Origin: Candidatus Latescibacterota bacterium
GTDB taxonomy: Bacteria > Latescibacterota > UBA2968 > UBA8231
Assembly: GCA_965208105.1 (NCBI GenBank)
Contig: OZ242318.1
Coordinates: forward strand, 4,704,001 to 4,768,000
Length of the DNA: 64,000 bases
Reading direction: 5' to 3'
Below the pieces are notes generated by a model. It was not told the DNA's origin. It did not search any database and was given only the letters and a program-made list of their open reading frames with translations. The position numbers and the translations under genes are program-made. The stretch's first letter is position 1, and every line of letters begins with the position of its first letter. Positions 1-19,533 of the stretch are shown one piece after another.

Positions 1-924
1 ATAGGTTTCCCCACCGAGGTGCTGGCCAGCAGTCCTGCCACCGCCTGCCTGTTGACCGAGGAAAGAATGGGCATGCTCGTTCCCCAGCGGCCTGGCGATG
101 CGCACAAGGGTCGCTGTGGCGCCGTCGCGGTTGTGGCAGGCTCGGCAGGCATGACCGGTGCTGCGGCGCTTACGGCGGAAAGCGCCCTGCGTTCCGGTGC
201 CGGCCGCGTAAGCCTCGGAACCCCGGCAAGTCTCAACGACATTCTCGAGGTCAAGCTCACCGAGGTGATGACCCGGCCCCTGCCGGAGGTCAGGAAGCAT
301 CGCTGCCTTGCCCTGCGCGCCCTGGGAGAGCTGCTGCGCCTGTTCCCGCGCTGCGACTGCGTGGCCATGGGTCCCGGGCTGGGCAGGCACCGGGAGACCA
401 TGGAGCTGGTGCGCCGCCTGGTTCCCCGGGCCGGGCGGCCGGTGGTGCTGGACGCCGACGGGCTCAATGCATTCGCCGGTGCGACCGATAAGTTGAAGGG
501 CGTGGATCACCCGCTGATCTTGACACCGCACATAGGAGAATTCACCCGGCTCTCGGAGCTGTCCAAGGAGGAAATCCTCGAGGATCCCATGGGGAGGGCG
601 CGGCGGTTTGCACTGGACTTCGGTCTTACCCTGGTCCTCAAGGGCGCTCCTACGGTGATCGCCACCTCCAGCGGTAAGGTCCTGGTGAACCCCAGCGGCA
701 ACGCCGGGATGGCTACCGCAGGTTCGGGGGATGTGCTGACGGGTCTCATCGCCGGGTTCCTCGCCCAGGGGCTGGCCCCCGAGGAGGCGGCCTGTCTCGG
801 AGTCTACATTCACGGTCGTGCCGGAGATGCGGCCTGCGATAAGATCGGCGAGTGGGGGATGACAGCCGGGGATATTGCCTCGAAGATTCCAGGGGCGGTC
901 CTCGACACCTACCGCGCTACTTGA
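1..924 (+). CDS. nnr: NAD(P)H-hydrate dehydratase (YjeF C-terminal domain), probably the 3' part of bifunctional Nnr; 5'-truncated by the window
   Basis: HKGxxG, AGSxGMTGAA, GPGLG, LDADG, LTPHxGEF and ATAGSGDVLTG motifs; frame is open from base 1 (IGFP...). Confidence 0.9.
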   Translation: MGFPTEVLASSPATACLLTEERMGMLVPQRPGDAHKGRCGAVAVVAGSAGMTGAAALTAESALRSGAGRVSLGTPASLNDILEVKLTEVMTRPLPEVRKHRCLALRALGELLRLFPRCDCVAMGPGLGRHRETMELVRRLVPRAGRPVVLDADGLNAFAGATDKLKGVDHPLILTPHIGEFTRLSELSKEEILEDPMGRARRFALDFGLTLVLKGAPTVIATSSGKVLVNPSGNAGMATAGSGDVLTGLIAGFLAQGLAPEEAACLGVYIHGRAGDAACDKIGEWGMTAGDIASKIPGAVLDTYRAT

Positions 925-949
925 CAGGGTTGCCCGGATGGCGTAATGT
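921..949 (+). promoter_or_regulatory. putative sigma70 promoter TTGACA-N17-TAATGT
   Basis: Perfect -35 with 17-bp spacer upstream of ORF 1031. Confidence 0.4.
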
Positions 950-1030
950 AAACCAATTCGGCCCGCGAGGGCATCGCGAAGCCGCGCCGTAAGGAATTTT
1001 GCACGCAGATCCCTAACAGAGAACCACGGA

Positions 1031-1549
1031 ATGTCAAGCGTTAAGGAAGCCATCGAGGCCATGATCGAAGCCTCCTACCTCCAGGGTTTGTCCGAGGAGG
1101 AAATCCGCCGGGACTTCGATCATTTCATCGACACCTGCCGTGGGGTGGTACAGGCCAACGTCCGTGACGAGGAAGCGGTCAGCAACCTTTCGCAGAGCCT
1201 TGCCCGGGAGAAAGATTGTATCCCCATCGGCGATCAAATCGAAGCCGCCGGCCCCGGTGGGAAAATCCGGGAGGAAGGCGAATGCAAATCGGCGCACGAG
1301 CGCTTCGCCGAGAAGGTGGCCTATCGCAAGAGAGTGGTCCTCAAGAAGCTGGCAGGCTATGATCCAAAGCTGGTCAGCCTCGTGGACGAGCTGCGCTTCC
1401 AGGGTGAGCCCAGGGAAGAGCCGAGAGTGCGCATCCGGATCAGGAAGCAGCACAACTGGGAACAAACCAGGCTCCTGCTGCTCAAACTGGGATATGCCGG
1501 TGCCGTTGTCCTCGTCATCCTGCTGGTCTATCTGGGCTATGTCCAATGA
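1031..1549 (+). CDS. hypothetical protein with a C-terminal transmembrane helix
   Basis: 172-aa ORF with genome-like codon usage; hydrophobic tail LGYAGAVVLVILLVYLGYV. Confidence 0.7.
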   Translation: MSSVKEAIEAMIEASYLQGLSEEEIRRDFDHFIDTCRGVVQANVRDEEAVSNLSQSLAREKDCIPIGDQIEAAGPGGKIREEGECKSAHERFAEKVAYRKRVVLKKLAGYDPKLVSLVDELRFQGEPREEPRVRIRIRKQHNWEQTRLLLLKLGYAGAVVLVILLVYLGYVQ

Positions 1550-1710
1550 CCTCGAGGAGTAGATGGATTCTTCTCCTGCGAAAAAGTTCATCCCTGCCCC
1601 CCTTGTCCCGACCATCCCGCTCCTCTTCTTCAGCATTCCAGGAAAACTATCCCCGATGAATGGAGATGTGCTCCGGTGCGTCTCTTTTTTTGCGTCTGTC
1701 CCTCAGAGGT

Positions 1711-4929
<3,219 letters not shown>

Positions 4930-4932
<3 letters not shown>

Positions 4933-5096
4933 TGTCCCGTCGCAGAAATATGTCGCCATTATTCCGCCGATCCATCCCGGCTCACGGCGTTGCCTTCACT
5001 CGCCGCACACCTCTGGTACGACTCGCCCCGGCGCCTTGTGGGTCTGGCGCCTCGGCGGCCCAATTTCGCCAACCTATCTCTGCGAGGGGACACTAG
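4930..5096. mobile_element. MITE-like element (~167 bp) with terminal inverted repeats, bounded by TAG at both ends
   Basis: Left end TAGTGTCCCGTCGCAGAAATATGT versus reverse complement of right end TAGTGTCCCCTCGCAGAGATAGGT; partial second copy at 33526. Confidence 0.75.
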
Positions 5097-5149
5097 GAAC
5101 GGAGTGACGAGGTCGGAGGCTCGTCGGCCGGCCTCGAGCGGAGATCCCC

Positions 5150-8100
5150 ATGCTTATCTTGCGCCTCATTCTTCTTCTCACCTTGTCGTCATTTGCTGCC
5201 TGCGTCTATTTCAACACCTACTACAACGCCCGAAAACACTTTCACCAGGCAGAAAAGCTGCGCCAGGAACACGAGCAGAAACAGCTTGGCATAGCCGAGG
5301 AGCAGCGCCGGCCCTCGGCTGCGGCCAACAGGTTGTACGACCAGGCCGCGCGCAAGTCGTCGAGGATCCTGGAGCAGCACAAGGACAGCGACCTGGTCGA
5401 CGACGCAATGTTCCTCCTGGGACGGGCGTTTTACTGGCAGGGGGACTATCTCAGCGCTGCCCGCACCTTCGAGGAACTCGAAAGCAATTTCCCCGACGGC
5501 CCTTTTCTCGACCGCGCCCGCTACTGGCGCGGGCTTTGCTATGAGGGCCAGCGGACAAAGTCCGAGGCCAGGTCAATATACCGCACCCTGATGAGCGTGG
5601 GGAGTGGAGAGTTGGCCTCGAAAGCGGGGTACAGGCTGGGCGAAATGGCGTTCTCCGAGGAGAACTATGCCGCTGCCATCCAGGAATACCAGGAAACCCT
5701 GGAGGCCTTTCCCAAAGCGGAGATAAGGTCGGCGTTGTGGCTGCGCCTGGGAGAGGCGATTTTCGCCCTCGGTGACTCTACGCGCTACGGGGAAGCCCTC
5801 TCCGCCTTCGGCGAGGTGCGCAATGAAAGCCCCTCGAAGCTCGAAGACTACCAGGCGCGTTTGATCAGCGGCCGGGTTCTATATGCCCTGGGGAAGGAGG
5901 AGGAGGCCCTTCGCGCCTACGAGAAACTCCTCAAGGAAGGACGCTTTCGGCCCTTCGAGGGGCAGACCCGGTTGCAGATCGGGCAGCATTACCTCGACCT
6001 TGACCTCGTGGATGAAGCTTTGGGCGAGTTCGAGCAGGTGCGCGACGACTTTCCCAACAGCACTTCCTCGGCTATGGCGCTATACCGCACCGCTCAGGTC
6101 CAACTGCAGGAATATGGAAATCTGGAGCAGGCGCGCGAGTATCTGCTGGAGGTGGGACGGGAGAAAAGGGACTCCGAGGCTGCCGTCCTGGCGAAGGAGA
6201 CAACGGCCTACATGACCCAGTTGGACCGCCTGGTCTACCGCGTTCACAGGGCGGATTCACTTCTGGCCGACTCTCTTGCCACCCTGGCGGATTCCCTTGC
6301 GCGGGGAGCCGAGGCGGCCGCGGGCGACTCGGTGGTGGATGCGCCCCGGGATAGCATGGCAATCACCGTGGGCAAGGCGCCTCCACCGGACTCTCTCCTG
6401 GCGGAGGATTCGGGCCACGCCGGGCCCGGGACGGCCGCGCCCGAACTGGAAGCAGCCGGTCCGCCTCCTGCAGGAGGGAGGACAGCCGGCTCCCGGGAGG
6501 GGGCCGCCGCCGGGCCGGATGCCGAAGGAAAATCGCCCGACTGGTTCTTCAAGAAAGGCGATTCATCGATGGGGGAGTCTCCCGCCCGCACGGTGGAAAT
6601 CTTCGAGGATCTCTTCGAGATCGCCGAACTCTACCGCGGCCGTCTGGCACAGCCCGACTCCTCACTCCGCTACTACCAGGAGGTTGCCCGCCGCTTTCCC
6701 AACTCGGTTCAGTTGCCTCGCATACTCTACAGCATGGCCTGGGTTCACCTGGAGATGAAGGAGGACCTGGAAGCGGCCAGGCCCTACCTGGAGCGCCTGA
6801 TCGTGGAGTACTCCGCCTCCGACCACGCCAACGCCGCGCGCAGCTACCTGGGGTTGGAGGAATGGCAGACTGACGAAGAGAAAGCCGCAGCCCGCTTCGT
6901 CGATATCGAAGCATTGCGGATGCAAGATGCTGAAGCACTGGATCTGTACGTGCCTTTGCTCGACAGCCTGAGCCGGCAATATCCGAACGCCCCCACGGCG
7001 GCCAAGGCCGCTTTCATTGCTGCCTCCTCCTACGAAAACGCAGGTGCCGATTCCGCCGAGGCGGAGAGGCGCTACGAGCGCCTGCTCCGCGATTTCCAGG
7101 AGTCTCCTTTTGCGCGCATGGTAGAGGAACGCCGCACCGCCCGTGAGGACGGGTTCCTGATCAAATTGGAGCGCGGCCTCAAGTCCGTGGGAGGGCAACT
7201 GGGTCCCGGCGAGCACGTCGAGGCCATCGCCGTAGAACCCGATTCGCTGGATTCTGTCGCCATCGGGCGAAAATACTTCGGCTTTGCCCTGAGGGCCCAC
7301 CGCCGAGGCGACCTGGACCGCGCCGGCGAGTTCTACGAACTGAGCCTTGAAGAGCAGGGAAGGAATTCAGAGGCGCTCTACCAGTTGGGCAATATCCAGT
7401 GGGAGAGCGGATACTACCAGGATGCCCTGGACTACTACCGCAACGCGGTGCGCTTCGACATCCATTTTCTCAAGGCGCACTACCGCCTATTCTATTCCCA
7501 CACCGCCAATGGACTCGTCGATTCGGCAAATTACTATCTTCAGCAGATCATCAGGAAGGACCGGGGAAATGACCAGGTGAAGTACATCATCGAGGAATTC
7601 CCCGGCCTCAGGCAGGCACCACCCGAGGAGCTCAGCCTCGGTGCACTGGAAGAACTGGTGCTCGATCCCCCCGAGGAGAATCTGTTCGCTTCCGCGGAGG
7701 TGTTGCGGTTGCAGGAATACCCGCTGGTGCGCAAGGTGGCTCTGCCCGCCTATCCTCCATCGGCCGGAGGAGATTCGGCCCTGGTGAATCTGGACGTTCT
7801 GGTGGGCAGGGATGGCCGCTCCGAGTCCGTGGAGCTCTTCGAGGGGGATGAACCTTTTGCCGGTGCCGCCTTGGAAGCGGCGCGGAACTATCATTTCTTT
7901 CCGGCGGAGAGCATGGACAGGGTTCCCTACCAGGATGAGGAAGAGAGAAGGGTGCGGGTCTGGGTGGAGCTGGTCTTGCCATTCCATCCTCCAGAAACAA
8001 CGGCTTCGAGAAAGACCCCGCCCGCAGCTACAGAGCGGGAAGCCAAAGCGGAATCTGCCGCCGCGGCTCCTGCTTCGACGACGGGGGACCCTACCTATCC

Positions 8101-8188
8101 CGATGGGGTGGGAGAGAGCCCGGCCGCTGCTGATACCATTTCTGCGGCCGACCTCCCGGCCCCGGCGGCGGCCGAGGCGGGGGAGTGA
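5150..8188 (+). CDS. large tetratricopeptide-repeat lipoprotein with a C-terminal TonB-C-like domain
   Basis: Lipobox FAAC followed by VYFNTYYNA; many TPR/BamD-like helical repeats; PAYP...LDVLVGRDG...AALEAARNYHFFPA...VWVELVLPF. Confidence 0.8.
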   Translation: MLILRLILLLTLSSFAACVYFNTYYNARKHFHQAEKLRQEHEQKQLGIAEEQRRPSAAANRLYDQAARKSSRILEQHKDSDLVDDAMFLLGRAFYWQGDYLSAARTFEELESNFPDGPFLDRARYWRGLCYEGQRTKSEARSIYRTLMSVGSGELASKAGYRLGEMAFSEENYAAAIQEYQETLEAFPKAEIRSALWLRLGEAIFALGDSTRYGEALSAFGEVRNESPSKLEDYQARLISGRVLYALGKEEEALRAYEKLLKEGRFRPFEGQTRLQIGQHYLDLDLVDEALGEFEQVRDDFPNSTSSAMALYRTAQVQLQEYGNLEQAREYLLEVGREKRDSEAAVLAKETTAYMTQLDRLVYRVHRADSLLADSLATLADSLARGAEAAAGDSVVDAPRDSMAITVGKAPPPDSLLAEDSGHAGPGTAAPELEAAGPPPAGGRTAGSREGAAAGPDAEGKSPDWFFKKGDSSMGESPARTVEIFEDLFEIAELYRGRLAQPDSSLRYYQEVARRFPNSVQLPRILYSMAWVHLEMKEDLEAARPYLERLIVEYSASDHANAARSYLGLEEWQTDEEKAAARFVDIEALRMQDAEALDLYVPLLDSLSRQYPNAPTAAKAAFIAASSYENAGADSAEAERRYERLLRDFQESPFARMVEERRTAREDGFLIKLERGLKSVGGQLGPGEHVEAIAVEPDSLDSVAIGRKYFGFALRAHRRGDLDRAGEFYELSLEEQGRNSEALYQLGNIQWESGYYQDALDYYRNAVRFDIHFLKAHYRLFYSHTANGLVDSANYYLQQIIRKDRGNDQVKYIIEEFPGLRQAPPEELSLGALEELVLDPPEENLFASAEVLRLQEYPLVRKVALPAYPPSAGGDSALVNLDVLVGRDGRSESVELFEGDEPFAGAALEAARNYHFFPAESMDRVPYQDEEERRVRVWVELVLPFHPPETTASRKTPPAATEREAKAESAAAAPASTTGDPTYPDGVGESPAAADTISAADLPAPAAAEAGE

Positions 8189-9006
8189 GCATGTTTCCCA
8201 TGCAGGACGCAAGCGGCACCCTGCTATCCAATACCGAGGTGGCCGAGGACTTTTACCTGGCCCGCCTGCACCTGCCGCCCCTGGCCGCCGCAGTCGTTCC
8301 GGGGCAGTTCGTGCAGGTGAGGGTCAGTTCCCGTCTGTCGCCTTTTTTGCGCATTCCCCTGAGTGTAGGCGGAGTCGACCGCAGCCAAGGCAACGTGGAC
8401 CTGCTCTACGAGGATATGGGTCCCAAGAGCAGGGCCCTGAGCCGGATAGGTGCCGGCAGCGAGGTGGGCTGTCTGGGACCTCTTGGACGCGGGTTCCCGG
8501 CGCCCACGGATGGGTGCCGCGCCGTGCTCGTGGCAGGGGGAATCGGCGTGCCTCCCCTGCTTTTCCTGGGCTCGGAGCTGCGCGCAAGGAACATTCCCGT
8601 TTCGCTGCTCGTCGGTGCGCGCTCGGCCTCCAGGCACCTTCCAGACGCCATGCTGGAGGCGGCCGCCCATGAGGTGGCCACGGCGACGGACGACGGCAGC
8701 GGGGGCCACCGGGGCCTGGTCACCGATCTGTTGGAGTTCACCCTGGATGAGCACGGAGACTGCGCCGTCTATACCTGCGGGCCTCACCCCATGATGGCCG
8801 CGGTGGCCGCAATCTGCCGCGAGCGCGCCGTTGCCTGCCAGGCTTCGCTGGAGGAGTACATGGCCTGCGGTTTCGGGGTCTGCGTCGGCTGCGTGGTCGA
8901 GATGGTTCCGAGGGACGGGGAGGTGGTATCGCCCTACGAACGCTACGGGCGAATCTGCGTCGACGGCCCCGTGTTCGATGCGCTCCGGGTGCGCTGGGAG
9001 AAGTGA
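8185..9006 (+). CDS. pyrK: dihydroorotate dehydrogenase electron transfer subunit
   Basis: PGQF, LRIPLS, GPLGRGF, AGGIGVPP, CGP, MACGFGVCVGC, CVDGPVF; adjacent to pyrD. Confidence 0.93.
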   Translation: MSMFPMQDASGTLLSNTEVAEDFYLARLHLPPLAAAVVPGQFVQVRVSSRLSPFLRIPLSVGGVDRSQGNVDLLYEDMGPKSRALSRIGAGSEVGCLGPLGRGFPAPTDGCRAVLVAGGIGVPPLLFLGSELRARNIPVSLLVGARSASRHLPDAMLEAAAHEVATATDDGSGGHRGLVTDLLEFTLDEHGDCAVYTCGPHPMMAAVAAICRERAVACQASLEEYMACGFGVCVGCVVEMVPRDGEVVSPYERYGRICVDGPVFDALRVRWEK

Positions 9007-9917
9007 TGGCCGACCTGTCGGTTAATTTCGCGGGGATTCGCTTGAGGAATCCGGTCCTTCTGGCATCGGGGACCTGCGGCTACGGCCAGGAGCTCGCCTC
9101 CCTGACCGACTTGTCGCGCATCGGGGGCCTGGTGAGCAAGACCATCACCCCCGAACCGCGCGCCGGCAACAAACCCCAGCGCATAGTCGAAACCGCCGCG
9201 GGCATGCTGAACTCGATCGGGTTGCAGAACCCCGGCCTGGATGGCTTCATCGAGCACAAGTGGCCCTTTTTGGCCAAACTCGACACCGCGGTGGTGGTCA
9301 ACATCGCCGCGCCCACCGCGGCGGAGCACGGGGAGATGGCCGCCCGCCTGCAGGAGCTGGAGGGTGTCGCCGGGTTGGAGGTGAACATCTCCTCCCCCAA
9401 CATGAAGGACGGGGGCATGCTCTTCGGCTGCAGCCCGGGGGCCGCGGCGGAGGTCATCGCGGCCGTGCGCCGGGCGACGAGGTTGCCGGTGATCGCCAAG
9501 CTGACCCCCAATGTCACCGATATCGCCGAGATCGCGCGCGCGGTGGAGGACGGCGGCGCCGACGCCATCTCCCTGATCAATACTCTGGTGGGCATGGCGG
9601 TGGACGTGCCGGCCCGTCGCCCCGTGCTGGACAACGTAACCGGGGGCCTGTCGGGTCCGGCGATCAAACCCGTTGCCCTGGCCATGCTCTGGAAAGTGCG
9701 GCAGGCGGTGAAACTTCCCCTCATGGGCGTGGGCGGCATCATGGATGCGGACGACGCCCTGGAGTTCATCATCGCCGGAGCCTCGACGGTGCAGGTGGGC
9801 ACCGGCCTCTTCGTCAATCCCAATGCCGGCGTGGAGATCGTGGAGGGGCTGGAGGCGTACTGCTCCGCGCAGGGAATCGAGAGCCTGGACTCCCTGGTTG
9901 GAAGCCTGGCGACCTAG
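9006..9917 (+). CDS. pyrD: dihydroorotate dehydrogenase family 1B catalytic subunit
   Basis: ASGT, MLNSIGLQNPG, NISSPN, KLTPNVTDI, LINTL, GGLSGPAIKP. Confidence 0.95.
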   Translation: MADLSVNFAGIRLRNPVLLASGTCGYGQELASLTDLSRIGGLVSKTITPEPRAGNKPQRIVETAAGMLNSIGLQNPGLDGFIEHKWPFLAKLDTAVVVNIAAPTAAEHGEMAARLQELEGVAGLEVNISSPNMKDGGMLFGCSPGAAAEVIAAVRRATRLPVIAKLTPNVTDIAEIARAVEDGGADAISLINTLVGMAVDVPARRPVLDNVTGGLSGPAIKPVALAMLWKVRQAVKLPLMGVGGIMDADDALEFIIAGASTVQVGTGLFVNPNAGVEIVEGLEAYCSAQGIESLDSLVGSLAT

Positions 9918-10646: not shown

Positions 10647-11053
10647 GTCAAGTCCTGAGATTTCTGCAAAAGTGATGGCAGCACGAAGCCCCCTTCCTAC
10701 CCGGCCACCGCCCTCCTTTGGGTAGCCGGTTCGATCTTCAACTCCTGGTATAAGAGATCCAGCTGGGCCCTCTCCGTCGCCGTGATCCCGATGCGCTGCC
10801 AGGTACCGGCCGCCCGGATCAGGGTAGCGTGGACGAGCTTGAGACAGCTCTTCTCGTTGAAGAAGCGGGGTATGGTTTTGGTAACCCGTCGCTCTTCCAC
10901 GAAACTGCGTTCAATCAGGTTGGTGGTACGTACGTATTTTCGATGGCGCCAGGGCACGCGCAGGTGGTTGAGAAGGGCCTCCAGATCCTCGCTGAGCACG
11001 GCGCACAGGCTTGGACAATCCTCAGGCAGCTTCGTTGCCCGGGTCCGAACCAA
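10647..11053 (-). mobile_element. IS256-family remnant: transposase C-terminal fragment (10697-~11040) plus putative right end
   Basis: RTTNLIERSFVEERR...IPRFFNEKSCLKLV is typical of Mutator/IS256 transposase C-termini; IR-like TTTTGCAGAAATCTCAGGACTTGAC downstream; N-terminal part absent. Confidence 0.8.
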
Positions 11054-11339: not shown

Positions 11340-11720
11340 ATGATCCAACTACAGAAGCGAACCCTGCAACCCTACGGACATAAGCTCGGTGTCACGGCAT
11401 ACGGCTTCGAGTTCGATGTGGATGGCTTCGTGGGTGACGCCAAGAAACTGGTAAAGGACCTTGCGAAAGGTAAAATTGAGGTCGGGAACATCAGGACAGG
11501 AGAGTCAAGAACTACATTCACAATCAACGCGGGGATCGGGCGCAGGAGCAGCAGCGATCCGGTGCATGACTATGGCGACAGCAACTGGGTCGAGTACAGC
11601 ATTGGCCCAATGAGCATCACCCATGTCAGCGCCCCCAACAGCGGCGGCAGTGGTAGCAGTGGTAGCAGTTCGCCATCGGGAGGTTATGGTTTCTCACCGA
11701 GCGACTACTACGATCGTTAA
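11340..11720 (+). CDS. putative precursor peptide/protein (126 aa) of the adjacent maturation cluster
   Basis: RBS AAGGAG before ATG 11340; leader-like MIQLQKRTLQPYGHKLGVTAY followed by G; Ser/Gly-rich tail; first gene of the cluster. Confidence 0.65.
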   Translation: MIQLQKRTLQPYGHKLGVTAYGFEFDVDGFVGDAKKLVKDLAKGKIEVGNIRTGESRTTFTINAGIGRRSSSDPVHDYGDSNWVEYSIGPMSITHVSAPNSGGSGSSGSSSPSGGYGFSPSDYYDR

Positions 11721-11834: not shown

Positions 11835-12557
11835 ATGCGTAACTCAACCGCCACACCCTGGCCCGCGAGCACGGATATAGGGTTCGTAAGAGGCCTGATC
11901 ATCGCGGCCTTCTTTCTGGTAAGCCTTCCCCTCCTCGAGGTGATCGTTGTCAACTTGGCTGGCACAGGATATATCATCGATACCCTGGAAGGAGCGGCGA
12001 TTATCTTGCCGGTCCATATTTTCAGCCTTTTTATGGTGGGATTCGTCGTGCAGAGGTGGGGAGGTATTCACTTCAAATCCCTGTTCCGCCGCCTTCCTAA
12101 CTTGAGGGAAGGCATAAAATGGGGTTCGGTCGGCGCGCTACTCGGATCAACGATGTTTTTTAAGGCGCTGAATTCCGGGTACCGGTTCGACAATCCGGAG
12201 GCCAACATCATGGTTTTGGTTCTGCTTGTAAAAGTCTCCCTGATCACCCCACTTGTCGAGGAAATCAAATATCGCGCGGTTTTCTACGCCGCCTTGCGCA
12301 AGAAGGGCAGGATCATCGCCTATGCGGTTTCGTCGCTGGTGTTTACCCTCGCCCACGCCCCGTCCTACGGCGATCTGTTCTTGCACGGATCCATGGGTCT
12401 TTCCGGTGGACAGATCGCTGGGCTCCTGCTCGCAGGCCTGGTCTTCGCTCATATCTATGAAACCACCGGCAAGCTGCTGGTCTGTGTCCTGTGCCACGCC
12501 ATGATCAACGGCATGGAGGTAATCGGCTACCTGGCAGGCTATTTGTTCGATGTGTGA
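11835..12557 (+). CDS. CPBP (CAAX/Abi) family intramembrane glutamic endopeptidase
   Basis: Multi-TM protein; motifs PLVEEIKYR, FTLAH and HAMIN. Confidence 0.88.
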   Translation: MRNSTATPWPASTDIGFVRGLIIAAFFLVSLPLLEVIVVNLAGTGYIIDTLEGAAIILPVHIFSLFMVGFVVQRWGGIHFKSLFRRLPNLREGIKWGSVGALLGSTMFFKALNSGYRFDNPEANIMVLVLLVKVSLITPLVEEIKYRAVFYAALRKKGRIIAYAVSSLVFTLAHAPSYGDLFLHGSMGLSGGQIAGLLLAGLVFAHIYETTGKLLVCVLCHAMINGMEVIGYLAGYLFDV

Positions 12558-12786
12558 AGCTTCCTTATTGTGGGATCCCACAATCTTCGGCGGTATCCTG
12601 TCTCCTCCCTCCAAATTGGGCATCCTCGCCTGACCTCGATTCCGGATCGCTGAGTCAAACCGAGACCCCAGGTCTTACCTAGCGGGATTACCCGACGGGG
12701 ACCAGACCGCGTGAAGTGTCGGGTATAGAATTTGCCGCTTTCTGCTCAACTCCAATCGAATCTACCGGGTGCCCTGGTACGTGTCT

Positions 12787-14502
12787 ATGAACCAAATCCT
12801 GCAGATTGTTCGACTCCTGCGGCCCTACTGGCGCTTCATTGCACAATCTCTGCTGGTAGGAGTCATGCTGACCTTCCTGAGTTTACCGGGGCCATTTATC
12901 ACCAAGCTCCTGATTGACGAAGTTTTCCCTCACAGAGATTACTCCTTGCTCTATTTCGTCCTGATCATGGGTGCGGTTTTCGCGGCGTTCACGGGGTTGA
13001 CCAGCTTCATGAGCGGCTATTTCAGTCAATGCGTAAGTACGAAAATGAGCTTTGATTTCGAGACGGATTTCTACAGCCATATCCAGTCCCTGGATTTCAG
13101 TTTTTTCGACCAGAGGGAGACAGGGGAAATCATGGCCAGGTTCGGAGACATGCAAAGTTCCATATTCAGCATGATTAGGATTGTAAATACCCTGGTAATG
13201 AATTGTCTGCAGTTGATGATATTTCCTCTCATTCTCTTCTACATCAACTGGAAGTTGGCTTTGATAAGTCTGGCAGTACTGCCCTTCGATACCCTCCTGG
13301 TGGCAATCACCAAGAAACATATCCGCAATCTGTCGAAGCGGATTGCCGAGCGTTCTGCCGAGATGTCGGCAAAAACATTCGAATCGCTGTCGGGGATTCG
13401 AACTGTCCAGGCGCTAGGTGTGGAGAGGATCTTTTTCAACAAGATTTTTGAAATCTTCAAGGAAGTGTCGAATCTCCGGCTCAAATTGTCCCTTGTGCAA
13501 AACGGTTCGGGATTTGCCGCGAATCTATTCAAAGCGGCGGGGAGTATGGCCTATGGCTGGTATGGATGGACCCAGATTTTACAGGGAAATTTGTCGCTGG
13601 GAAGCTTCATGGCGTTTTCCGGGTATGTCGGATTTCTCTACGGGCCCATAGAAAACCTGATTGGAATTCTCCCCCTTCTCGAGACAACGAAGGTTCACCT
13701 CAATCGTTTTTTTGAGATCTATAATTTGCGTCCGGCGATTCAGAATCGTCTGAATATGCCCGTTCTGCAACGCGTGCAAGGGGAAATCGAGTTCAGCGAA
13801 GTAAGTTTCTCCTACGATGAGCGCCAAAGGATTCTCCATCGGGTCAACCTGGAAATCCCCCCACGTACCATGATCGCCCTCGTAGGCAGGAGCGGATCCG
13901 GGAAATCCACTCTGGCCAAGCTGATTCCAAGGTTCTACGACCCCGATGAAGGGCAGGTTCGCATAGATGGAAAGGATATCCAGAAATTCCAGCTCAACTC
14001 GCTGCGCCGGCAGGTTGGGTTTTCCATGCAGGGAACCCCCCTTTTCCAGGGGAGTATTCTGGATAACCTGACCTTCGGAAGGAACATTCCAGTGCAGGAC
14101 GTGGAAGATGCGGCTCGATCAGCCTATATCCACGATTTCGTGAATTCCTTGGCGGATGGCTACGATACCCTGGTGGGCGAGCAGGGGGCCAAGTTGTCGG
14201 AAGGACAGAAACAGCGCATCGCTCTTGCCCGTGTTTGGTTGCTTGATGTCCCAATTCTGATACTGGACGAACCCACCGCGGCTCTGGACCTGGAATCAGA
14301 ATTTTTCATACAGGAAGCCCTCAAAAGGGTACGGAAAAATCGAACAGTCGTCATAATCGCACACCGGCTCTCGACCATCCAAAGCGCAGACGAGATAGTT
14401 GTACTGGATGATGGCAGGATATCCGAGAGGGGAACCCACGGGGAGTTGTTGCAAAACGGCGAAGGGTACTCTCAGCTCTTCAGCCGAATGGCAAGTATTT
14501 GA
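12787..14502 (+). CDS. ABC exporter, fused permease/ATPase (no C39 peptidase domain)
   Basis: N-terminal TM domain; Walker A GRSGSGKST, signature LSEGQKQR, ILILDEPT, IAHRLST. Confidence 0.93.
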   Translation: MNQILQIVRLLRPYWRFIAQSLLVGVMLTFLSLPGPFITKLLIDEVFPHRDYSLLYFVLIMGAVFAAFTGLTSFMSGYFSQCVSTKMSFDFETDFYSHIQSLDFSFFDQRETGEIMARFGDMQSSIFSMIRIVNTLVMNCLQLMIFPLILFYINWKLALISLAVLPFDTLLVAITKKHIRNLSKRIAERSAEMSAKTFESLSGIRTVQALGVERIFFNKIFEIFKEVSNLRLKLSLVQNGSGFAANLFKAAGSMAYGWYGWTQILQGNLSLGSFMAFSGYVGFLYGPIENLIGILPLLETTKVHLNRFFEIYNLRPAIQNRLNMPVLQRVQGEIEFSEVSFSYDERQRILHRVNLEIPPRTMIALVGRSGSGKSTLAKLIPRFYDPDEGQVRIDGKDIQKFQLNSLRRQVGFSMQGTPLFQGSILDNLTFGRNIPVQDVEDAARSAYIHDFVNSLADGYDTLVGEQGAKLSEGQKQRIALARVWLLDVPILILDEPTAALDLESEFFIQEALKRVRKNRTVVIIAHRLSTIQSADEIVVLDDGRISERGTHGELLQNGEGYSQLFSRMASI

Positions 14503-14538
14503 ACTGAAGGGAGGAAAGAAAAAATCGAAAGAATCAGT

Positions 14539-16536
14539 TTGAGTCGTCTGACTGGCCGCGATGTCAAGGTCGCGATTGTGGACAGCGGCATTGATGCTTC
14601 GCACCCGAAAGTCGGTTTGGTAGCTGGAGGACTGGCGCTGTGGTCCGCCCCGAATGGGGGAACTGCCTCGGGAGGGGATTGGTCGGACTGCACCGGCCAT
14701 GGAACAGCCTGCGCCGGTATTGTCCGCAAGAAAGCTCCGGAATCCGAAATGTACAGCGTCCGCATTTTCGACGAAACCTTGTCGACCGATGGCACATCAC
14801 TAGTGGCTGCTCTGGAATGGACGATTTCAAAAGAAATGGACGTGGTGAATTTGAGCCTGGGAAGCACCGGCCTGAGCCAAAGGGAAGACCTGAGGGCAGT
14901 CTGTCGTCAGGCGGCAAAGGCCGGAATTGTCCTTGTTGCAGCCGAGCACAATGCGGGCAGAGAAAGCTATCCGGCCGTGTTTCCGGAAGTAATAGGAGTC
15001 AGTGGAGGATGGGTTCAGGGGGCCTACGGCTACTACTACCGTTCGGAAGAGGCCATCGAATGCGTGGCCAGGGGCAACCACCAGCGCGTATGCTGGTTGA
15101 ACCGAGGTGAAATCATGATCGAGGGGACGAGCTTCGCCGCAGCCCATATTTCGGGGATTGTATGCTTGATTCGCGAAGCATTACCCGGGGCTACGGTGGA
15201 GAAAGTGCGCGAGGTTCTGCAGGCAAACGCTCTGCCTGAAATTTCCAACCATAGCGCCGGTGTGGGACAATCTTCGCCACCGCCTGCTCAGCGGAAGCTC
15301 GTTCAGGCTTCCCGGTCAGAGGCCAAATCTGCCATCAGGTGGATCCGGAAGGCGGCAATCTATCCATTCAACAAGGAGATGCATGCCCTGGTTCGATATC
15401 GAGACTTGCTCAGCTTTGAACTGGTTGGCGTCGCCGATCCGGTAGGAAAGGGGCTGGTAGGCAAGGACGCCGGGGAAGCCATGGGGATTTCTTCTGCGGG
15501 CATCAGAATTCAGCCGAGGCTCTCCTCTGCCCTTCGGGGGGCCGACACCCTTATTCTCGGCTACGTCGACCAACTCAGCCGCATCGGCAAAAAGGACATG
15601 TTGCGCGAGGCGGTCCGCCTCGCTTTGGATCAAGGCTGCCACGTCTTCAGTTTCGTCTCCCTTCCTCGAGACGTCTACGCGGACCTCCATGATCTCGCGG
15701 CGGGAAAAGGATTGCGCCTCACCTATCCATCCGTCGATTACGAGGAGGTCCGGGATGCCCTGGTCTCCGGTCAGAAATCCAGCCCCGTCGACGTTCCGGT
15801 GGTAGGGGTGTTCGGAACCAGCTCTCAACAGGGAAAATTCACCCTGCAACTGGCCCTGCGCCGCCGCCTCCTGCGCCTGGGATACAAGGTCGGTCAGATT
15901 GGCACCGAACATCACTCAGCACTTTTCGGCATGGATTTCGCATTTCCCATGGGGTATGCTTCACCTCTGGATTTGCCAATCCAGTGGCATGTACCCTATC
16001 TGGACTACAAAATGCGGCAGATATGTGGGCAACGAAGGCCCGACCTCATTCTGGTCGGTTCGCAGTCCGGTACCATCCCCTATGACGTGCATGAGCACGG
16101 GGCTCATTCCATGGCCTCGGTCTCGTTCCTTCTGGGCACCAAGCCCGATGCATGTATATTGGTGGTCAACAGCATCGATGCGGACCGCTACGTTGAGGAC
16201 AGCATGGATGCCATCCGCGCCCTGGCCAAGGCCCCCACTTTGCTTCTGGCCATGAGCGACAAGAAAAAGCATATCATGGCGGCGTACGGACGTAGTTGGG
16301 TTGCGCCGCGCCAGATGAGGGGGGCGGAAATCGCGGCAAAGCTGGGCTACCTGGAAGACAGGTTCGGCTTGCCAGCCATTGAAATCTCCTCCGTTCAGGG
16401 CCAGCGAATAGTTGCTGCGGAGGTCCTTCGGTATTTTGCTTCCTCGAAAAAGGCGGGTTGTAAGCGGGGCCTCACCCGGATTCACCGGCCTCGTTGGAAA
16501 AGAGATGAAACAACCCTAAAGTCAAGGTTTCCTTAA
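14539..16536 (+). CDS. S8 (subtilisin-like) peptidase fused to a DUF1611 / TIGR04066-like domain
   Basis: Catalytic triad VDSGID, GHGTACAG, GTSFAA; C-terminal Rossmann-like part plus VGVFGTSSQQGKFT and QIGTE; no signal peptide. Confidence 0.82.
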   Translation: MSRLTGRDVKVAIVDSGIDASHPKVGLVAGGLALWSAPNGGTASGGDWSDCTGHGTACAGIVRKKAPESEMYSVRIFDETLSTDGTSLVAALEWTISKEMDVVNLSLGSTGLSQREDLRAVCRQAAKAGIVLVAAEHNAGRESYPAVFPEVIGVSGGWVQGAYGYYYRSEEAIECVARGNHQRVCWLNRGEIMIEGTSFAAAHISGIVCLIREALPGATVEKVREVLQANALPEISNHSAGVGQSSPPPAQRKLVQASRSEAKSAIRWIRKAAIYPFNKEMHALVRYRDLLSFELVGVADPVGKGLVGKDAGEAMGISSAGIRIQPRLSSALRGADTLILGYVDQLSRIGKKDMLREAVRLALDQGCHVFSFVSLPRDVYADLHDLAAGKGLRLTYPSVDYEEVRDALVSGQKSSPVDVPVVGVFGTSSQQGKFTLQLALRRRLLRLGYKVGQIGTEHHSALFGMDFAFPMGYASPLDLPIQWHVPYLDYKMRQICGQRRPDLILVGSQSGTIPYDVHEHGAHSMASVSFLLGTKPDACILVVNSIDADRYVEDSMDAIRALAKAPTLLLAMSDKKKHIMAAYGRSWVAPRQMRGAEIAAKLGYLEDRFGLPAIEISSVQGQRIVAAEVLRYFASSKKAGCKRGLTRIHRPRWKRDETTLKSRFP

Positions 16537-16548
16537 AGGGAGGGGTAA

Positions 16549-16836
16549 ATGGGAAAAGAAGGCACAGAGTATCGCATCAAGCGCACCATCGTCCGTACCC
16601 TGAATCTCGACATCGAGCCCGATGAAATCGGTGACGATGATTTGTTGTTCGGCGGCGACCTCGGTCTGCACTCCATGGCGGCGATGGAAATCATTGTCGG
16701 ACTGGAGGAGGAATTCAGCTTTGAGGTTTCGGACGATGATCTGAGAGTCGAGTTACTGAACAGTGTTCGCTCGATGAGCGAATACATTGAATCAACCCTT
16801 TCAGATTCCTCCGCCATGCGGGTGAAGGACCCTTGA
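16549..16836 (+). CDS. acyl carrier protein
   Basis: Acidic 95-aa protein; GDLGLHS(42)MAAMEIIVGLEEEF phosphopantetheine site; strong RBS GGGAGG. Confidence 0.88.
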   Translation: MGKEGTEYRIKRTIVRTLNLDIEPDEIGDDDLLFGGDLGLHSMAAMEIIVGLEEEFSFEVSDDDLRVELLNSVRSMSEYIESTLSDSSAMRVKDP

Positions 16837-16839
16837 GCC

Positions 16840-19533
16840 ATGATACCGGATATAAAGCTATTTTACGAGCCTGGATCGAGAGATTGTGCAGAAGACCTGG
16901 CGGTCTCCGTAGCCTCCTGGAAGAGGAGAAAGCACGAGCTGATGTTCGCTGAGTCATGGGGGTTTGGTTTTGACCCACCTGGTTCGGGCGGTGGAGAAAG
17001 AATTGGAGATGGGATCGATCCTGCAATGGGCGACCGGTGGGGATTGCTGGAGCGCCATCACGGAATAAAATGGTCGGTCGGCAAAAACCATTCTGATGAA
17101 GAACTCGCTGCTCTCTTGCAGGGGGAAATTGAAGGAGGTTTTCCGGTCGCATTGAGCCTGAGCGTGGGTGAAACGAGGAAAGAATGCAGCGCCAAGGGCG
17201 ACAGGAGTTCGCCCCTCCCCTATATCCTGGCCGTGGGGTTTGATTACAGTGCCCGGACCCTGTCTTATCTGCGATACAACACCCAATGTCCCGGTGAAGG
17301 AAACGGCGAAATAGAGCATATCTCCCTCGGTGACTTCGAGGATTGGGATGGTGGTTACATGACCGTCCGACTGACGGGAAAGGACAAGTGGCAAGAGGCC
17401 GACGGGGTTGAAGTTATTGAAAGAGCCTTGGCAAGCGTCGGCAACTTCGATGAATGCAGAAGCACCGTTTCAATCCACCAATTTGCCGATGCATTGGATC
17501 GGGGCCTTGATATAGAGGCTGAAATTGCAGGCTGCACCAACTATCACCGGGTTCCATTGTTTTACAATCTGATGCGGGTTGGCCATGGGCGCTTTCAGTT
17601 CTCCAGATTGCTGCGCCTTCTGAGCATCACTGGCCACTTCCCGGAGCTTGGGGAAGCTGCTGGCCGCTTGGAGTCCCTGGGAAGACGGTGGAATCTGGTC
17701 CGCAGCCTGTTGATGAAATTGGGGATGAGGGCGAGCGATGTTCAATTGCCGGGTCGAATCAGCACGAGAGTCAGAGAACTGGCGGCGGCTGAGGAGGAAT
17801 TGGCCTCGGTCCTGCGGGAATTCGGTTTTAGGAAGAGAAGGAACCCCTTCTCGAAAATTCGTAAAAATTCTCTCGTCCCGGAACCATCCTCTTCAGGAAT
17901 TGAAATGTATCCCCGTCCTGCACTGAAGCATCCATATGTGGGCCCTCGGGACGGGAAGGAGCGCCGCCTCGTCCATATCTGGCAGGAAGTCCTTGGCGTC
18001 CGAAAGGTTGGTGTTCACGACGACTTCTTTGAGTTGGGCGGGGACTCCTTGCTGGGGATCCATGTTGTTGCCCTTGTCCGTAAGGCAGGGTTGCAACTGA
18101 CTACCGGACAGCTTTTCGAACGCCGGACAATCGCAGGATTGGCCCAGGTTGAAGGGAAGGGGACCTGGATTTGCGCTGAGCAGGATCTGGTGACAGGTCC
18201 TGTACCCATCACACCCGGTGCGCGCCGGTTCCTGGAGCATATCGGTCCCGGCAGACACCACTACAACGTGTCTGTTCTCCTGGAGACGCCAGACGGCTTC
18301 GACCCCGGACGAATGGACCAGGCCGTGCGCCATGTGGTCGCCCATCACGATGCCCTCCGATTTCGTTATTTCCATGACGGCAGGACGGGATGGCGGCAGT
18401 ACATGGCCGGGCTTGATGGGCCAAATCATTTCACCATTACAGATCTGAGCGGCATTCCCAGGGCGGGGCAAAGTGCCGCAATTGAAGAGGCTGCGGCCGA
18501 AGTACAGGCCAGCCTGAACCTGTCCCGGGGACCCTTATGCCGGGTGACCTTTTTCGATCTTGGGGATCACCGTCGCGGGCGCCTGTTATTTGTCGTACAC
18601 CACATTGCCGTGGATGGGATGTGCGAGCGCTTTCCCCTGGAGGACCTTCTTTTGGTCTACCAGCAGCTTTGCGCAGGCGATGAGGTCCGGATGCCTCCAA
18701 AGACAACCTCATTCAAGCGATGGGCAATTGGTCTGGAGAAATACGCCCGTTCGGAGGCCTTGAAGAAGGAGGCAGATTATTGGCTGAGCTTGCCCTGGGA
18801 TCAGGTGCGTCCCTTTCCCCTGGATAATGCAGAAGGAGTGAACAGCCGAGCCTCTTCATCCTTCATAGAAATTACCATATCCCCAGAAAAGACGCACACC
18901 TTACTGTCAGTTCCCAGGAAGTCGACCACCAGGGTCCACGAGGTGTTGCTGACAGCGCTCGCTCTGGCCCTCTCACGATGGACCGGATCGGATACCGTAT
19001 TGGTAGACCTGATGCATCATGGACGCGAGCCGCTTTTCGACCACATGGACCTGTCTCGCACGGTGGGCAATTTCATCTCCCATGTTCCGGTAGTACTGAA
19101 ACTGGGGAACGCATCCCCTGCTTCACAGGCGGTGGAAATGGTCAAAGAGCAACTTCGCAAAATTCCCAGGGGAGGCATCGGGTATGGTTTGCTGCGGTAT
19201 AGGTGTGGGGATACTGAGGAAAACGAAAAATTGCGAAGCTGCCCAAAGGCCGAGATCAGCTTCAACTGCCGGATTCACGGGGCTCGGACATTGCCGGCTA
19301 ATCAGGGTCATCTGGCCGCTGGATCTTTTCAACCAGCCATGGAATCCTGCGGTCCCCCTATCGCCCAGGATGCAATCAGGGGCCATCTGATCGGATTCAG
19401 AGCCGACATCATTAACGGCCGGGCAAACCTCGGCTTCACCTACAGCGCGGCGTTGCAAAGGGGATCTACGGTCGAAGCTCTGACCCATGGCTGTATGGAG
19501 GAGTTGGACTCGCTCCTCGGCCGTCTTCATTGA
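16840..19533 (+). CDS. BtrH-like N-terminal domain + carrier (T) domain + epimerisation-type condensation-superfamily domain
   Basis: DC...MFAESWGFGF and YILAVGFD (BtrH_N-like); DDFFELGGDS(403)L; HHIAVDG, HHGRE, SRTVG, PRGGIGYGLLRY. Confidence 0.78.
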   Translation: MIPDIKLFYEPGSRDCAEDLAVSVASWKRRKHELMFAESWGFGFDPPGSGGGERIGDGIDPAMGDRWGLLERHHGIKWSVGKNHSDEELAALLQGEIEGGFPVALSLSVGETRKECSAKGDRSSPLPYILAVGFDYSARTLSYLRYNTQCPGEGNGEIEHISLGDFEDWDGGYMTVRLTGKDKWQEADGVEVIERALASVGNFDECRSTVSIHQFADALDRGLDIEAEIAGCTNYHRVPLFYNLMRVGHGRFQFSRLLRLLSITGHFPELGEAAGRLESLGRRWNLVRSLLMKLGMRASDVQLPGRISTRVRELAAAEEELASVLREFGFRKRRNPFSKIRKNSLVPEPSSSGIEMYPRPALKHPYVGPRDGKERRLVHIWQEVLGVRKVGVHDDFFELGGDSLLGIHVVALVRKAGLQLTTGQLFERRTIAGLAQVEGKGTWICAEQDLVTGPVPITPGARRFLEHIGPGRHHYNVSVLLETPDGFDPGRMDQAVRHVVAHHDALRFRYFHDGRTGWRQYMAGLDGPNHFTITDLSGIPRAGQSAAIEEAAAEVQASLNLSRGPLCRVTFFDLGDHRRGRLLFVVHHIAVDGMCERFPLEDLLLVYQQLCAGDEVRMPPKTTSFKRWAIGLEKYARSEALKKEADYWLSLPWDQVRPFPLDNAEGVNSRASSSFIEITISPEKTHTLLSVPRKSTTRVHEVLLTALALALSRWTGSDTVLVDLMHHGREPLFDHMDLSRTVGNFISHVPVVLKLGNASPASQAVEMVKEQLRKIPRGGIGYGLLRYRCGDTEENEKLRSCPKAEISFNCRIHGARTLPANQGHLAAGSFQPAMESCGPPIAQDAIRGHLIGFRADIINGRANLGFTYSAALQRGSTVEALTHGCMEELDSLLGRLH

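Follow-up and report, generated by a model that had tools for sequence, protein, structure and literature searches.

Why would a bacterium build a subtilisin-like protease and a DUF1611-type domain into one polypeptide, and encode an acyl carrier protein (ACP) immediately behind it? The question is raised by a gene in a 64,000-nucleotide (nt) stretch of a Candidatus Latescibacterota genome (contig OZ242318.1, positions 4,704,001 to 4,768,000), here called the window, to which all unprefixed positions below refer. The gene (14539-16536, + strand) starts with TTG and encodes a 665-residue fusion of an S8 protease with a domain of the DgcN/DUF1611 fold. An earlier note, made from the sequence alone, had proposed that a single protein both cuts a peptide and acylates the N-terminus so created, with the ACP as donor. 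We find that the gene is a fused variant of an uncharacterized peptide-maturation system and newly delineate the family of precursors that accompanies it. Our tentative answer, weighed below against three others, is that the protein may remove a leader from a ribosomal peptide and then acylate the exposed amine.

The N-terminal half of the protein is an S8 peptidase. Pfam Peptidase_S8 (PF00082) matched residues 6-243 (14554-15267, + strand) with E = 1.5e-26 (93.8 bits against a cut-off of 21.8), and alignment to subtilisin BPN′ placed Asp15, His54 and Ser198 (codons 14581-14583, 14698-14700 and 15130-15132) on the triad motifs and Asn138 (14950-14952) at the oxyanion position (D32, H64, S221 and N155 in BPN′ numbering). 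A profile score above cut-off, the Asp/His/Ser order and the oxyanion Asn thus place it in the family. The BPN′ alignment begins at residue 21 of mature subtilisin and therefore leaves no room for a propeptide; Pfam found no I9 inhibitor domain in the fusion protein, and inspection by eye found no hydrophobic signal-like stretch in its N-terminus (MSRLTGRDVKV...). The Pfam match and the alignment agree with the earlier note, which had described an intact triad with neither signal peptide nor propeptide. A secreted subtilase, which would carry both, was ruled out. The best NCBIfam match of this half was the leader peptidase QhpE (NF049966; E = 1e-42, profile positions 1-211 of 219), which is its nearest named relative and not its family, as the score of 146 bits misses the equivalog threshold of 165. 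Weak NCBIfam similarity to PatA/PatG was also seen. QhpE is a cytoplasmic leader peptidase that trims a ribosomal precursor in the maturation of quinohemoprotein amine dehydrogenase.

The start of the gene is unusual. The open reading frame (ORF) is in frame with the TGA stop of the preceding ATP-binding cassette (ABC) gene, with 36 nt between them (14500-14541), and the only good Shine-Dalgarno sequence, GGAGG at 14510-14514, lies 24 nt before the TTG. Most fusion homologues have an N-terminus 4-40 residues longer. Either a non-canonical true start or coupled translation is possible.

Behind the protease, a low-complexity linker (residues ~232-262; 15232-15324, + strand) forms a gapped block that is the sole length-variable, unconserved stretch in an alignment of 22 homologues. 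It is followed by a Rossmann-like N-lobe (residues 263-413; 15325-15777, + strand), which opens with a conserved YPFNKEMH, and a P-loop C-lobe (residues 414-618; 15778-16392, + strand). Pfam DUF1611 (PF07755, P-loop) matched the C-lobe with E = 6.3e-13 (49 bits against a cut-off of 25). The N-lobe was recognized from AlphaFold and Foldseek and from a near-cut-off match of DUF1611_N (PF17396, Rossmann-like) to residues 306-373, at 22.0 bits below the cut-off of 22.6; some fusion homologues do have a precomputed PF17396 match. Within the C-lobe, GTSSQQGKFT (residues 426-435; 15814-15843, + strand) is invariant at nine of ten positions across the 22 homologues, and GTEHH, LFGMD and GSQSGTIPYD are further motifs. 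Alignment, Pfam and structural model agree on the linker, the Rossmann-like region and the P-loop motif that had been read from this gene alone.

Comparison of the fold with DUF1611 and DgcN had been named beforehand as the result that could refute the acylation proposal. We modelled residues 263-645 with AlphaFold2 from a 48-row alignment (pLDDT 90, pTM 0.88), and Foldseek matched the model over both lobes to 2g0t (TM0796, DUF1611; E = 1.4e-15), 7xrj ('N-acetyltransferase DgcN-25328'; E = 3.1e-12) and 2obn (DUF1611, Ava_3511; E = 1.5e-11). These superpositions spanned 384-407 aligned columns with TM 0.57-0.71, and all remaining Foldseek matches, to the IcmF G-domain, Mur ligases, succinyl-CoA synthetase alpha and DapB, had TM ≤0.40. 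The outcome that would have refuted the proposal, a domain unlike DUF1611, was therefore not obtained. Identity to the DUF1611 and DgcN structures is 15-18%, and a PDB sequence search with the C-terminal half returned 2g0t alone (E = 2e-4 with the single sequence, 3e-6 with a profile), so the link to DgcN needed fold comparison. DgcN itself uses acetyl-CoA and D-glutamate. The strand-end Glu of TM0796 (VEGQG) is replaced by Gly in the fusion family (LVGSQSG), a change that weakens a reading of the domain as an NTPase. The nearest curated family of residues 271-560, at a score below its cut-off, was TIGR04066, 'peptide maturation system protein' (E = 6e-35, profile positions 2-283 of 361), which was also the best family for all 14 relatives examined, at 47-119 bits. 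Complex prediction for the fusion and the ACP scored 0.18 against a mark of 0.32, which is not evidence either way.

To judge how widespread this architecture is, we collected its homologues. By a word-indexed search we obtained at least 120 full-length proteins with 56-94% identity, every one tagged S8 plus DUF1611, and the fusion is therefore not a chance event; they are named only 'S8 family serine peptidase' or carry a COG-style epimerase label. With the C-terminal domain as the only query, an exhaustive HMMER search gave 1369 cluster representatives at E ≤1e-3 and 414 at E ≤1e-30. Fusion length (560-740 residues) was found in 117 of the best 150 representatives, and both Pfam domains in 18 of 20 sampled representatives of at least 596 residues, the exceptions being P0235, with no S8 match, and P0242, with S8 only. 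P0235 (728 residues) contains two stretches matching the DUF1611-like domain and a DapB_N-like N-terminus, and may represent a tandem or differently fused architecture. Stand-alone forms of 364-406 residues also exist.

Across 118 diverse fusion proteins, the triad is retained almost throughout (Asp in 114, His in 117, Ser in 116), as are the P-loop residues K433 (109) and T/S435 (108) and other polar residues of the C-terminal half: K279, E280, Q509 and D537 (109 each), D300 (106), E457 and D547 (113 each) and N544 (105). With such conservation, the protease and the C-terminal half both seem catalytically competent. The fusion family is large and ancient. Scanning one genome per species yielded 79 fusion loci, mostly in Candidatus Latescibacterota, with some in Gemmatimonadota and one in KSB1. 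One Latescibacterota chromosome, OZ244847.1, carries six paralogous loci with different precursor types (L002, L013, L036, L040, L058 and L075), and several other genomes have two or three copies.

A constant partner of the fusion is the ACP. In the window, a dedicated carrier of 95 residues (16549-16836, + strand) begins 12 nt past the fusion stop codon and matches PF00550 (PP-binding; E = 2.9e-11, 43.9 bits against a cut-off of 20.8); its phosphopantetheine-site Ser42 (codon 16672-16674) is invariant in 23 ACP homologues. We counted neighbours by clustering ORFs across loci and annotating representatives, leaving out L037, L074 and L077, which have no intact co-oriented fusion ORF. HMM searches of the 59 loci flanked by at least 5 kb on either side found an ACP in 54, a BtrH-like gene in 47 and both in 45. 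The adjoining ACP pointed out in the earlier note is thus a conserved linkage, and it lies directly next to the fusion in 49 of the 69 loci with at least 400 nt downstream. A BtrH-like gene, where there is one, usually follows the ACP immediately. In the clustering, ABC exporters of ~571 residues occurred in 54 loci and HlyD in 45; CPBP proteases, GNATs, TPR proteins, AcrB, six-bladed propellers, rhodanese and MauE/DoxX were further recurrent neighbours. Most copies of one sub-clade (L021, L024, L026, L032 and L046) precede a family-5 solute-binding protein and a Cache/HAMP histidine kinase.

Three groups can be distinguished among the BtrH-like genes: F29, F12 and the window type. F29 matches BtrH_N (49.1 bits against 29.7) and DUF4872. 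F12 has no Pfam match and no obvious N-terminal Cys nucleophile, and its model (pLDDT 72.7) matches the folds of AziU2/U3 (8e-8), CtaG (2e-6) and CcbD (6e-5). The window type forms residues 1-360 (16840-17919, + strand) of an 897-residue protein (16840-19533, + strand), which continues into a peptidyl carrier protein (PCP) domain (residues 376-436; 17965-18147, + strand; Pfam PP-binding) and a condensation-superfamily domain with the motif HHIAVDG (residues 462-893; 18223-19518, + strand; Pfam Condensation). This architecture is limited to L001, L045 and L047. Its BtrH-like domain has no direct Pfam or NCBIfam match and was aligned to F29 by hhalign with 96.4% probability, from a query alignment containing no F29 members. 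Cys16 is invariant (19 of 19) and Asp135 nearly so (18 of 19), and the His of the F29 DHQ motif aligns to Pro or Tyr. The domain appears to be of the papain-fold transacylase type. The protein also has a weak TIGR01720 tail (59.7 bits against 74.2), and no adenylation domain was found in it or elsewhere in the window cluster. In the parts of the source available to us, CtaG, BtrH and AsbE are described as papain-like ligases that acylate amines from carrier-protein donors, CtaG acting between two carriers (PMC12865890).

Two loci depart from this arrangement. In L076 (8264-9613 of that locus), the gene behind the fusion encodes an ACP fused to a transglutaminase-like core. In L073 (KSB1, 65-9353), GNAT acetyltransferases follow the ACP, and a radical S-adenosylmethionine (radical-SAM)/SPASM enzyme and sugar-modifying genes precede the fusion.

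What, then, would be cleaved? Upstream of the fusion, a putative precursor of 126 residues (11340-11720, + strand) consists of a 21-residue leader, MIQLQKRTLQPYGHKLGVTAY (11340-11402, + strand), and a 105-residue core that begins GFEFDV.... The leader belongs to a family shared by small co-oriented ORFs: it reads M-x-x-L-x-K-[K/R/P]..., spans 19-23 residues, ends in [V/I]-x-A-Y and is followed by x-x-E. A pattern scan found 40 matches in 36 of the 79 loci on the fusion strand, as against 2 on the other strand; 20 shuffles gave 0-6 matches each. We relied on the scan because an iterative HMM from 7 leader seeds recovered the same 7 only, leaders of 20 residues being too short for inclusion by E-value. 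Features that the pattern did not impose were also conserved, with Val or Ile at P4 in 38 of 40 and, at P3′, Glu in 32 of 40 and Asp in 5 more. The closest copy of the window precursor is in L001 (60% identity). The window precursor has no Pfam or NCBIfam match; among the precursors examined, NCBIfam matched 0 of 8 and Pfam 0 of 2. The cores are hypervariable, being Gly/Ala-rich and hydrophobic, Cys-rich and ~50 residues long, or longer than 100 residues. A family of small co-oriented ORFs with a conserved leader and a hypervariable core beside processing genes is what would be expected of leader-bearing ribosomal precursors, and these probably are such. Conservation at the junction runs past the presumed cut (for example, 11391-11411), as Glu or Asp at P3′. 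The DgcN-like domain, which has a characterized relative acting on glutamate, may use this Glu for recognition.

These observations suggest a pathway. We favour, tentatively and at slightly less than even confidence, a reading in which the fusion is the central cytoplasmic maturase of a ribosomal bacteriocin-like peptide system and its DgcN-fold domain passes an ACP-borne acyl group to the new α-amine. The S8 domain, which has neither propeptide nor signal peptide, would remove the 19-23-residue leader by cutting after [V/I]-x-A-Y; this is the job done in double-glycine exporters by a C39 domain, and the ABC exporter of the cluster has none. The DgcN-fold domain, by analogy with DgcN, would act on the phosphopantetheine thioester of the dedicated ACP and move its acyl group to the amine freshly exposed by cleavage, perhaps recognizing the conserved Glu three residues on. 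The 897-residue protein would build or extend the group carried by the ACP, much as CtaG acts between two carriers, the ABC transporter would export the modified core, and the CPBP protein would protect the producer. Leader removal after Tyr by the S8 domain is the best-supported of these predicted steps, because the P4 and P1 residues fit subtilisin pockets, the exporters lack C39 and the S8 half is closest to QhpE. Subtilisins favour hydrophobic residues in their S4 and S1 pockets, and Val/Ile at P4, Ala at P2 and Tyr at P1 fit this preference. Acyl transfer by the second half keeps the chemistry of DgcN, with a thioester donor and an α-amine acceptor, and would explain why it is fused to an enzyme that makes an amine; it also agrees with the greater constancy of the ACP relative to the BtrH-like gene, and with a Paenibacillus cluster, described below, that lists no BtrH-like gene.

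Several points count against this reading. The leader pattern was written after examples had been seen. The TIGR04066 score of 120.9 bits falls short of the cut-off of 200 and, with the low identity to the known structures, means that function may have shifted. A carrier-dependent papain-fold transacylase, the textbook catalyst for ACP-to-amine transfer, is present in 47 of 59 loci, so a transferase role for the DgcN-like domain is unnecessary there. No ACP lies within 8 kb of the five full-length copies of the sub-clade named above, which keep every motif; they cut against an obligatory ACP link, and their genomes may supply an ACP in trans. No adenylating, adenylation or ATP-grasp loader was seen among the conserved neighbour families or the extra neighbours scanned. 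The DgcN-like domain could thus equally be the ACP loader, and the missing loader is a gap that a P-loop domain could fill. There would then be a division of labour, which we regard as a real if doubtful possibility: the S8 domain removes the leader, the DgcN-fold domain uses an acyl-CoA, or a carboxylate or amino acid plus nucleotide, to charge holo-ACP, as BtrJ does for butirosin and CtaI/CtaD for closthioamide, and amide formation with the peptide falls to a BtrH/CtaG-like enzyme, elsewhere replaced by the L076 transglutaminase-ACP fusion or a GNAT. Such a scheme gives every conserved part a job, with no other loader in view among the scanned neighbours. It draws on the acylation of amines from carrier donors by BtrH, AsbE and CtaG in the accessible parts of that study (PMC12865890), on the matches of F29 to BtrH_N and DUF4872 and of the F12 model to AziU2/U3, CtaG and CcbD, and on the position of most BtrH-like genes just behind the ACP. 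It also accounts for a transferase-type neighbour that varies (F12, F29, the L076 fusion, GNATs in L073 and F41) beside a constant pair of DgcN-like domain and ACP, and it suits the strongly conserved Walker-A Lys and Thr and the ATP-dependent Mur-type ligases and succinyl-CoA synthetase alpha among the second-tier folds. However, the sole characterized enzyme of the DgcN fold is an N-acyltransferase and not a ligase (7xrj title), and Gly in place of the TM0796 Glu speaks against NTP hydrolysis. BtrH-like genes are missing from 9 of the 54 ACP-bearing loci and from the Paenibacillus cluster table as far as we have it, F12 lacks an obvious N-terminal Cys nucleophile, the BtrH-like domain of the window lacks the expected His, and the fusion of a loader to a protease is left without a reason.

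The replaced acid can be read in another way, as a Walker-B-like residue is also missing from some regulatory P-loop proteins. In that case the C-terminal domain would bind nucleotide and gate the protease, recognize the leader or dock to the ABC exporter, with the ACP serving a separate tailoring step. The resemblance of the P-loop lobe to SIMIBI-type G-domains (IcmF/MeaB and SRP54, among the second-tier matches) and the retention of all motifs in the ACP-less loci suit such a switch or scaffold. We consider it improbable, as the two-lobe match is specific to DUF1611/DgcN (TM 0.57-0.71 against ≤0.40 for others), the many near-invariant residues outside the P-loop, from K279 to D547, resemble an active site, and the ACP is linked in 54 of 59 loci. 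Still less probable, to the point of being very unlikely, is a ligation driven by the protease, in which the phosphopantetheine thiol of the ACP, held by the DgcN-like domain, captures the Ser198 acyl-enzyme, and BtrH-like or condensation enzymes join the resulting peptidyl-S-ACP to an amine. S8 enzymes of the PatG type can be transacylases or macrocyclases, and the fusion does place a thioester-binding fold beside a protease that forms acyl-enzymes. We know of no precedent for such a ligation onto an ACP, however, and the S8 domain is not distinguishable in sequence from relatives that hydrolyse, QhpE among them. It is the conserved leader, and not the variable core, that the acyl-enzyme would carry, so the product would be the leader. 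The weak PatA/PatG similarity and, in the parts of the paper available to us, the use of carrier-bound donors by enzymes of the downstream type (PMC12865890) speak for it. Coupled cleavage and acylation, as in our favoured reading and in the earlier note, is plausible by analogy with DgcN. The cleavage part of that proposal has gained a conserved precursor family and a junction that a subtilisin could cut, which would leave GFEFDV... as the new N-terminus, in line with the note; its acylation part had overlooked the BtrH-like enzyme as a rival catalyst.

The rest of the window cluster is consistent with a peptide-export locus. Between precursor and fusion lie a CPBP (Rce1-like/Abi) intramembrane protease family protein (11835-12557, + strand; Pfam Rce1-like, E = 1.1e-18) and an ABC exporter with transmembrane and ATPase domains (12769-14502, + strand), in which Pfam found ABC_membrane and ABC_tran only, without C39. 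NCBIfam bacteriocin-exporter models matched the exporter only from their position ~140-150 onwards (for example, TIGR01193 over 142-706 of 708). Abi/CPBP proteins of bacteriocin loci have been linked to immunity, and the CPBP protein is a candidate immunity or processing protein. A housekeeping protease joined to a D-glutamate catabolic enzyme was ruled out as an identity for the fusion: dgcA-like or amino-acid catabolic neighbours were not seen, and the company is precursor, ACP and exporter. The cluster (about 11.3-19.5 kb) has a GC content of 51-57% against 62-67% in its flanks, and follows just after a C-terminal fragment of an IS256-family transposase (10697-11053, - strand; E = 4.3e-13, profile positions 271-334 of 338). 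As it is set among housekeeping genes, it looks like an acquired island.

The type of core goes with different neighbours. Comparison of the 12 loci with Cys-rich cores (L030, L031, L034, L038, L040, L041, L044, L049, L051, L062, L067 and L072) with the 24 loci with other cores showed six-bladed propellers in 12 and 1, AcrB in 9 and 0, and the BtrH_N family F29 in 7 and 2, respectively. The opposite held for CPBP (0 and 15, the latter family F17), F12 (3 and 14) and TPR proteins (0 and 10). Rhodanese (6 of 12) and MauE/DoxX (3 of 12) were also found with Cys-rich cores and were nearly absent from the other 24 precursor-bearing loci. The Cys-rich-core loci are perhaps a distinct sub-system for disulfide or thioether chemistry.

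In our literature searches, no paper gave DUF1611, PF07755 or COG3367 a part in peptide maturation, and we found no description of the precursor family with the AY leader and, in the parts of the sources available to us, no survey of Latescibacterota gene clusters or of ribosomally synthesized and post-translationally modified peptides (RiPPs) that addresses the fusion system. It is conceivable, if on balance unlikely, that the 'AY-leader' peptides of Latescibacterota, Gemmatimonadota and KSB1 are an unrecognized, phylum-wide ribosomal class whose DgcN-fold domain is a carrier-dependent N-acyltransferase fused to a leader peptidase, with cleavage and capping of the N-terminus coupled. If so, this would give a first function to the TIGR04066/TIGR04069 systems of Firmicutes. 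A DgcN fold that proved to act as a carrier-dependent peptide acyltransferase, or as a new ACP loader, would be a further enzyme class for peptide acylation. The role of DUF1611/TIGR04066 proteins in peptide clusters becomes directly approachable with three to four proteins and one peptide, owing to the protease fusion and the constant ACP. The V/I-x-A-Y leader type and its precursors are apparently unflagged by genome-mining tools, and might give access to hundreds of clusters from little-studied phyla.

How does this system relate to those already known? Like the S8 half, QhpE is a small S8 protease without a propeptide, but it stands alone at ~220 residues and has a radical-SAM enzyme as partner and not an ACP. 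The C-terminal half shares with DgcN (7xrj), TM0796 (2g0t) and Ava_3511 (2obn) the two-lobe fold and a P-loop of the type G-T-x4-G-K-x-T, and differs from them, at the low identity given above, in its own motifs: the QQ of the P-loop, GTEHH, LFGMD and GSQSGTIPYD. Its partners are a fused protease and a linked ACP, where DgcN is paired with the D-glutamate catabolic DgcA. With the pathways of BtrH, CtaG, AsbE and CcbD the system shares a dedicated carrier followed in most loci by a BtrH-like gene, and structural matches to CtaG and CcbD. The products of those pathways are small and non-ribosomal, and their carriers are loaded by ATP-grasp or acyl-CoA-synthetase enzymes, whereas here the precursor is ribosomal and the DgcN-like domain is the sole candidate loader. 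The free ACP of the window, together with its BtrH-like-PCP fusion, recalls the two carriers of CtaG and the carrier-transacylase fusion MllDE, as presented in the accessible parts of PMC12865890.

Among peptide systems, the double-glycine bacteriocins and their peptidase-containing ABC transporters (PCATs) also combine a short conserved leader with variable cores, hydrophobic and Gly/Ala-rich or Cys-rich, and with ABC and HlyD components and CPBP/Abi neighbours. Here, however, V/I-x-A-Y stands in place of G-G, there is no C39, cleavage would fall to a cytoplasmic S8 domain and the pathway would include an extra, ACP-dependent step. Goadvionins and lipolanthines are N-acylated RiPPs made in an ACP-dependent manner by GNAT enzymes and polyketide synthase or fatty acid synthase modules. 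The likeness to them would lie in a carrier-bound acyl group joined to the N-terminus of a leader-trimmed ribosomal peptide, and the difference in a candidate transferase of another fold and in ketosynthase and acyltransferase genes, which do not accompany the fusion.

A close parallel is the TIGR04066/TIGR04069 system of Firmicutes. As far as the available part of the report covers it, the SacP23 cluster of P. polymyxa (Paenibacillus) comprises a Cys-rich precursor of the CLI_3235 family with a 19-residue leader, an ABC transporter, a radical-SAM protein (TIGR04068), proteins of TIGR04066 and TIGR04069 (the latter 'acyl carrier-related') and a subtilisin-like protease encoded by its own gene (PMC10731318). 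No BtrH-like gene is listed for the cluster there, and immunity, as a role for the TIGR04066 protein, is only a guess of its authors (PMC10731318). Both systems thus bring together a DUF1611-like protein, an ACP-type protein, a subtilisin-like protease, an ABC transporter and a precursor with a short leader. They differ in host phyla and in the score of the DUF1611-like part (47-121 bits against 200); the window cluster has no radical-SAM (CcpM, TIGR04068) gene, its ACP looks like an ordinary one without a TIGR04069 match, and the precursors of the fusion loci have no NCBIfam match. A further difference is that protease and DUF1611-like protein form one polypeptide here. As these parts are separate genes in the SacP23 cluster, protease, DUF1611-like protein and ACP-type protein, judging from that partial account, also travel together unfused. 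Two of these parts, the protease and the DUF1611-like protein, are joined in the Latescibacterota gene as a Rosetta-stone fusion.

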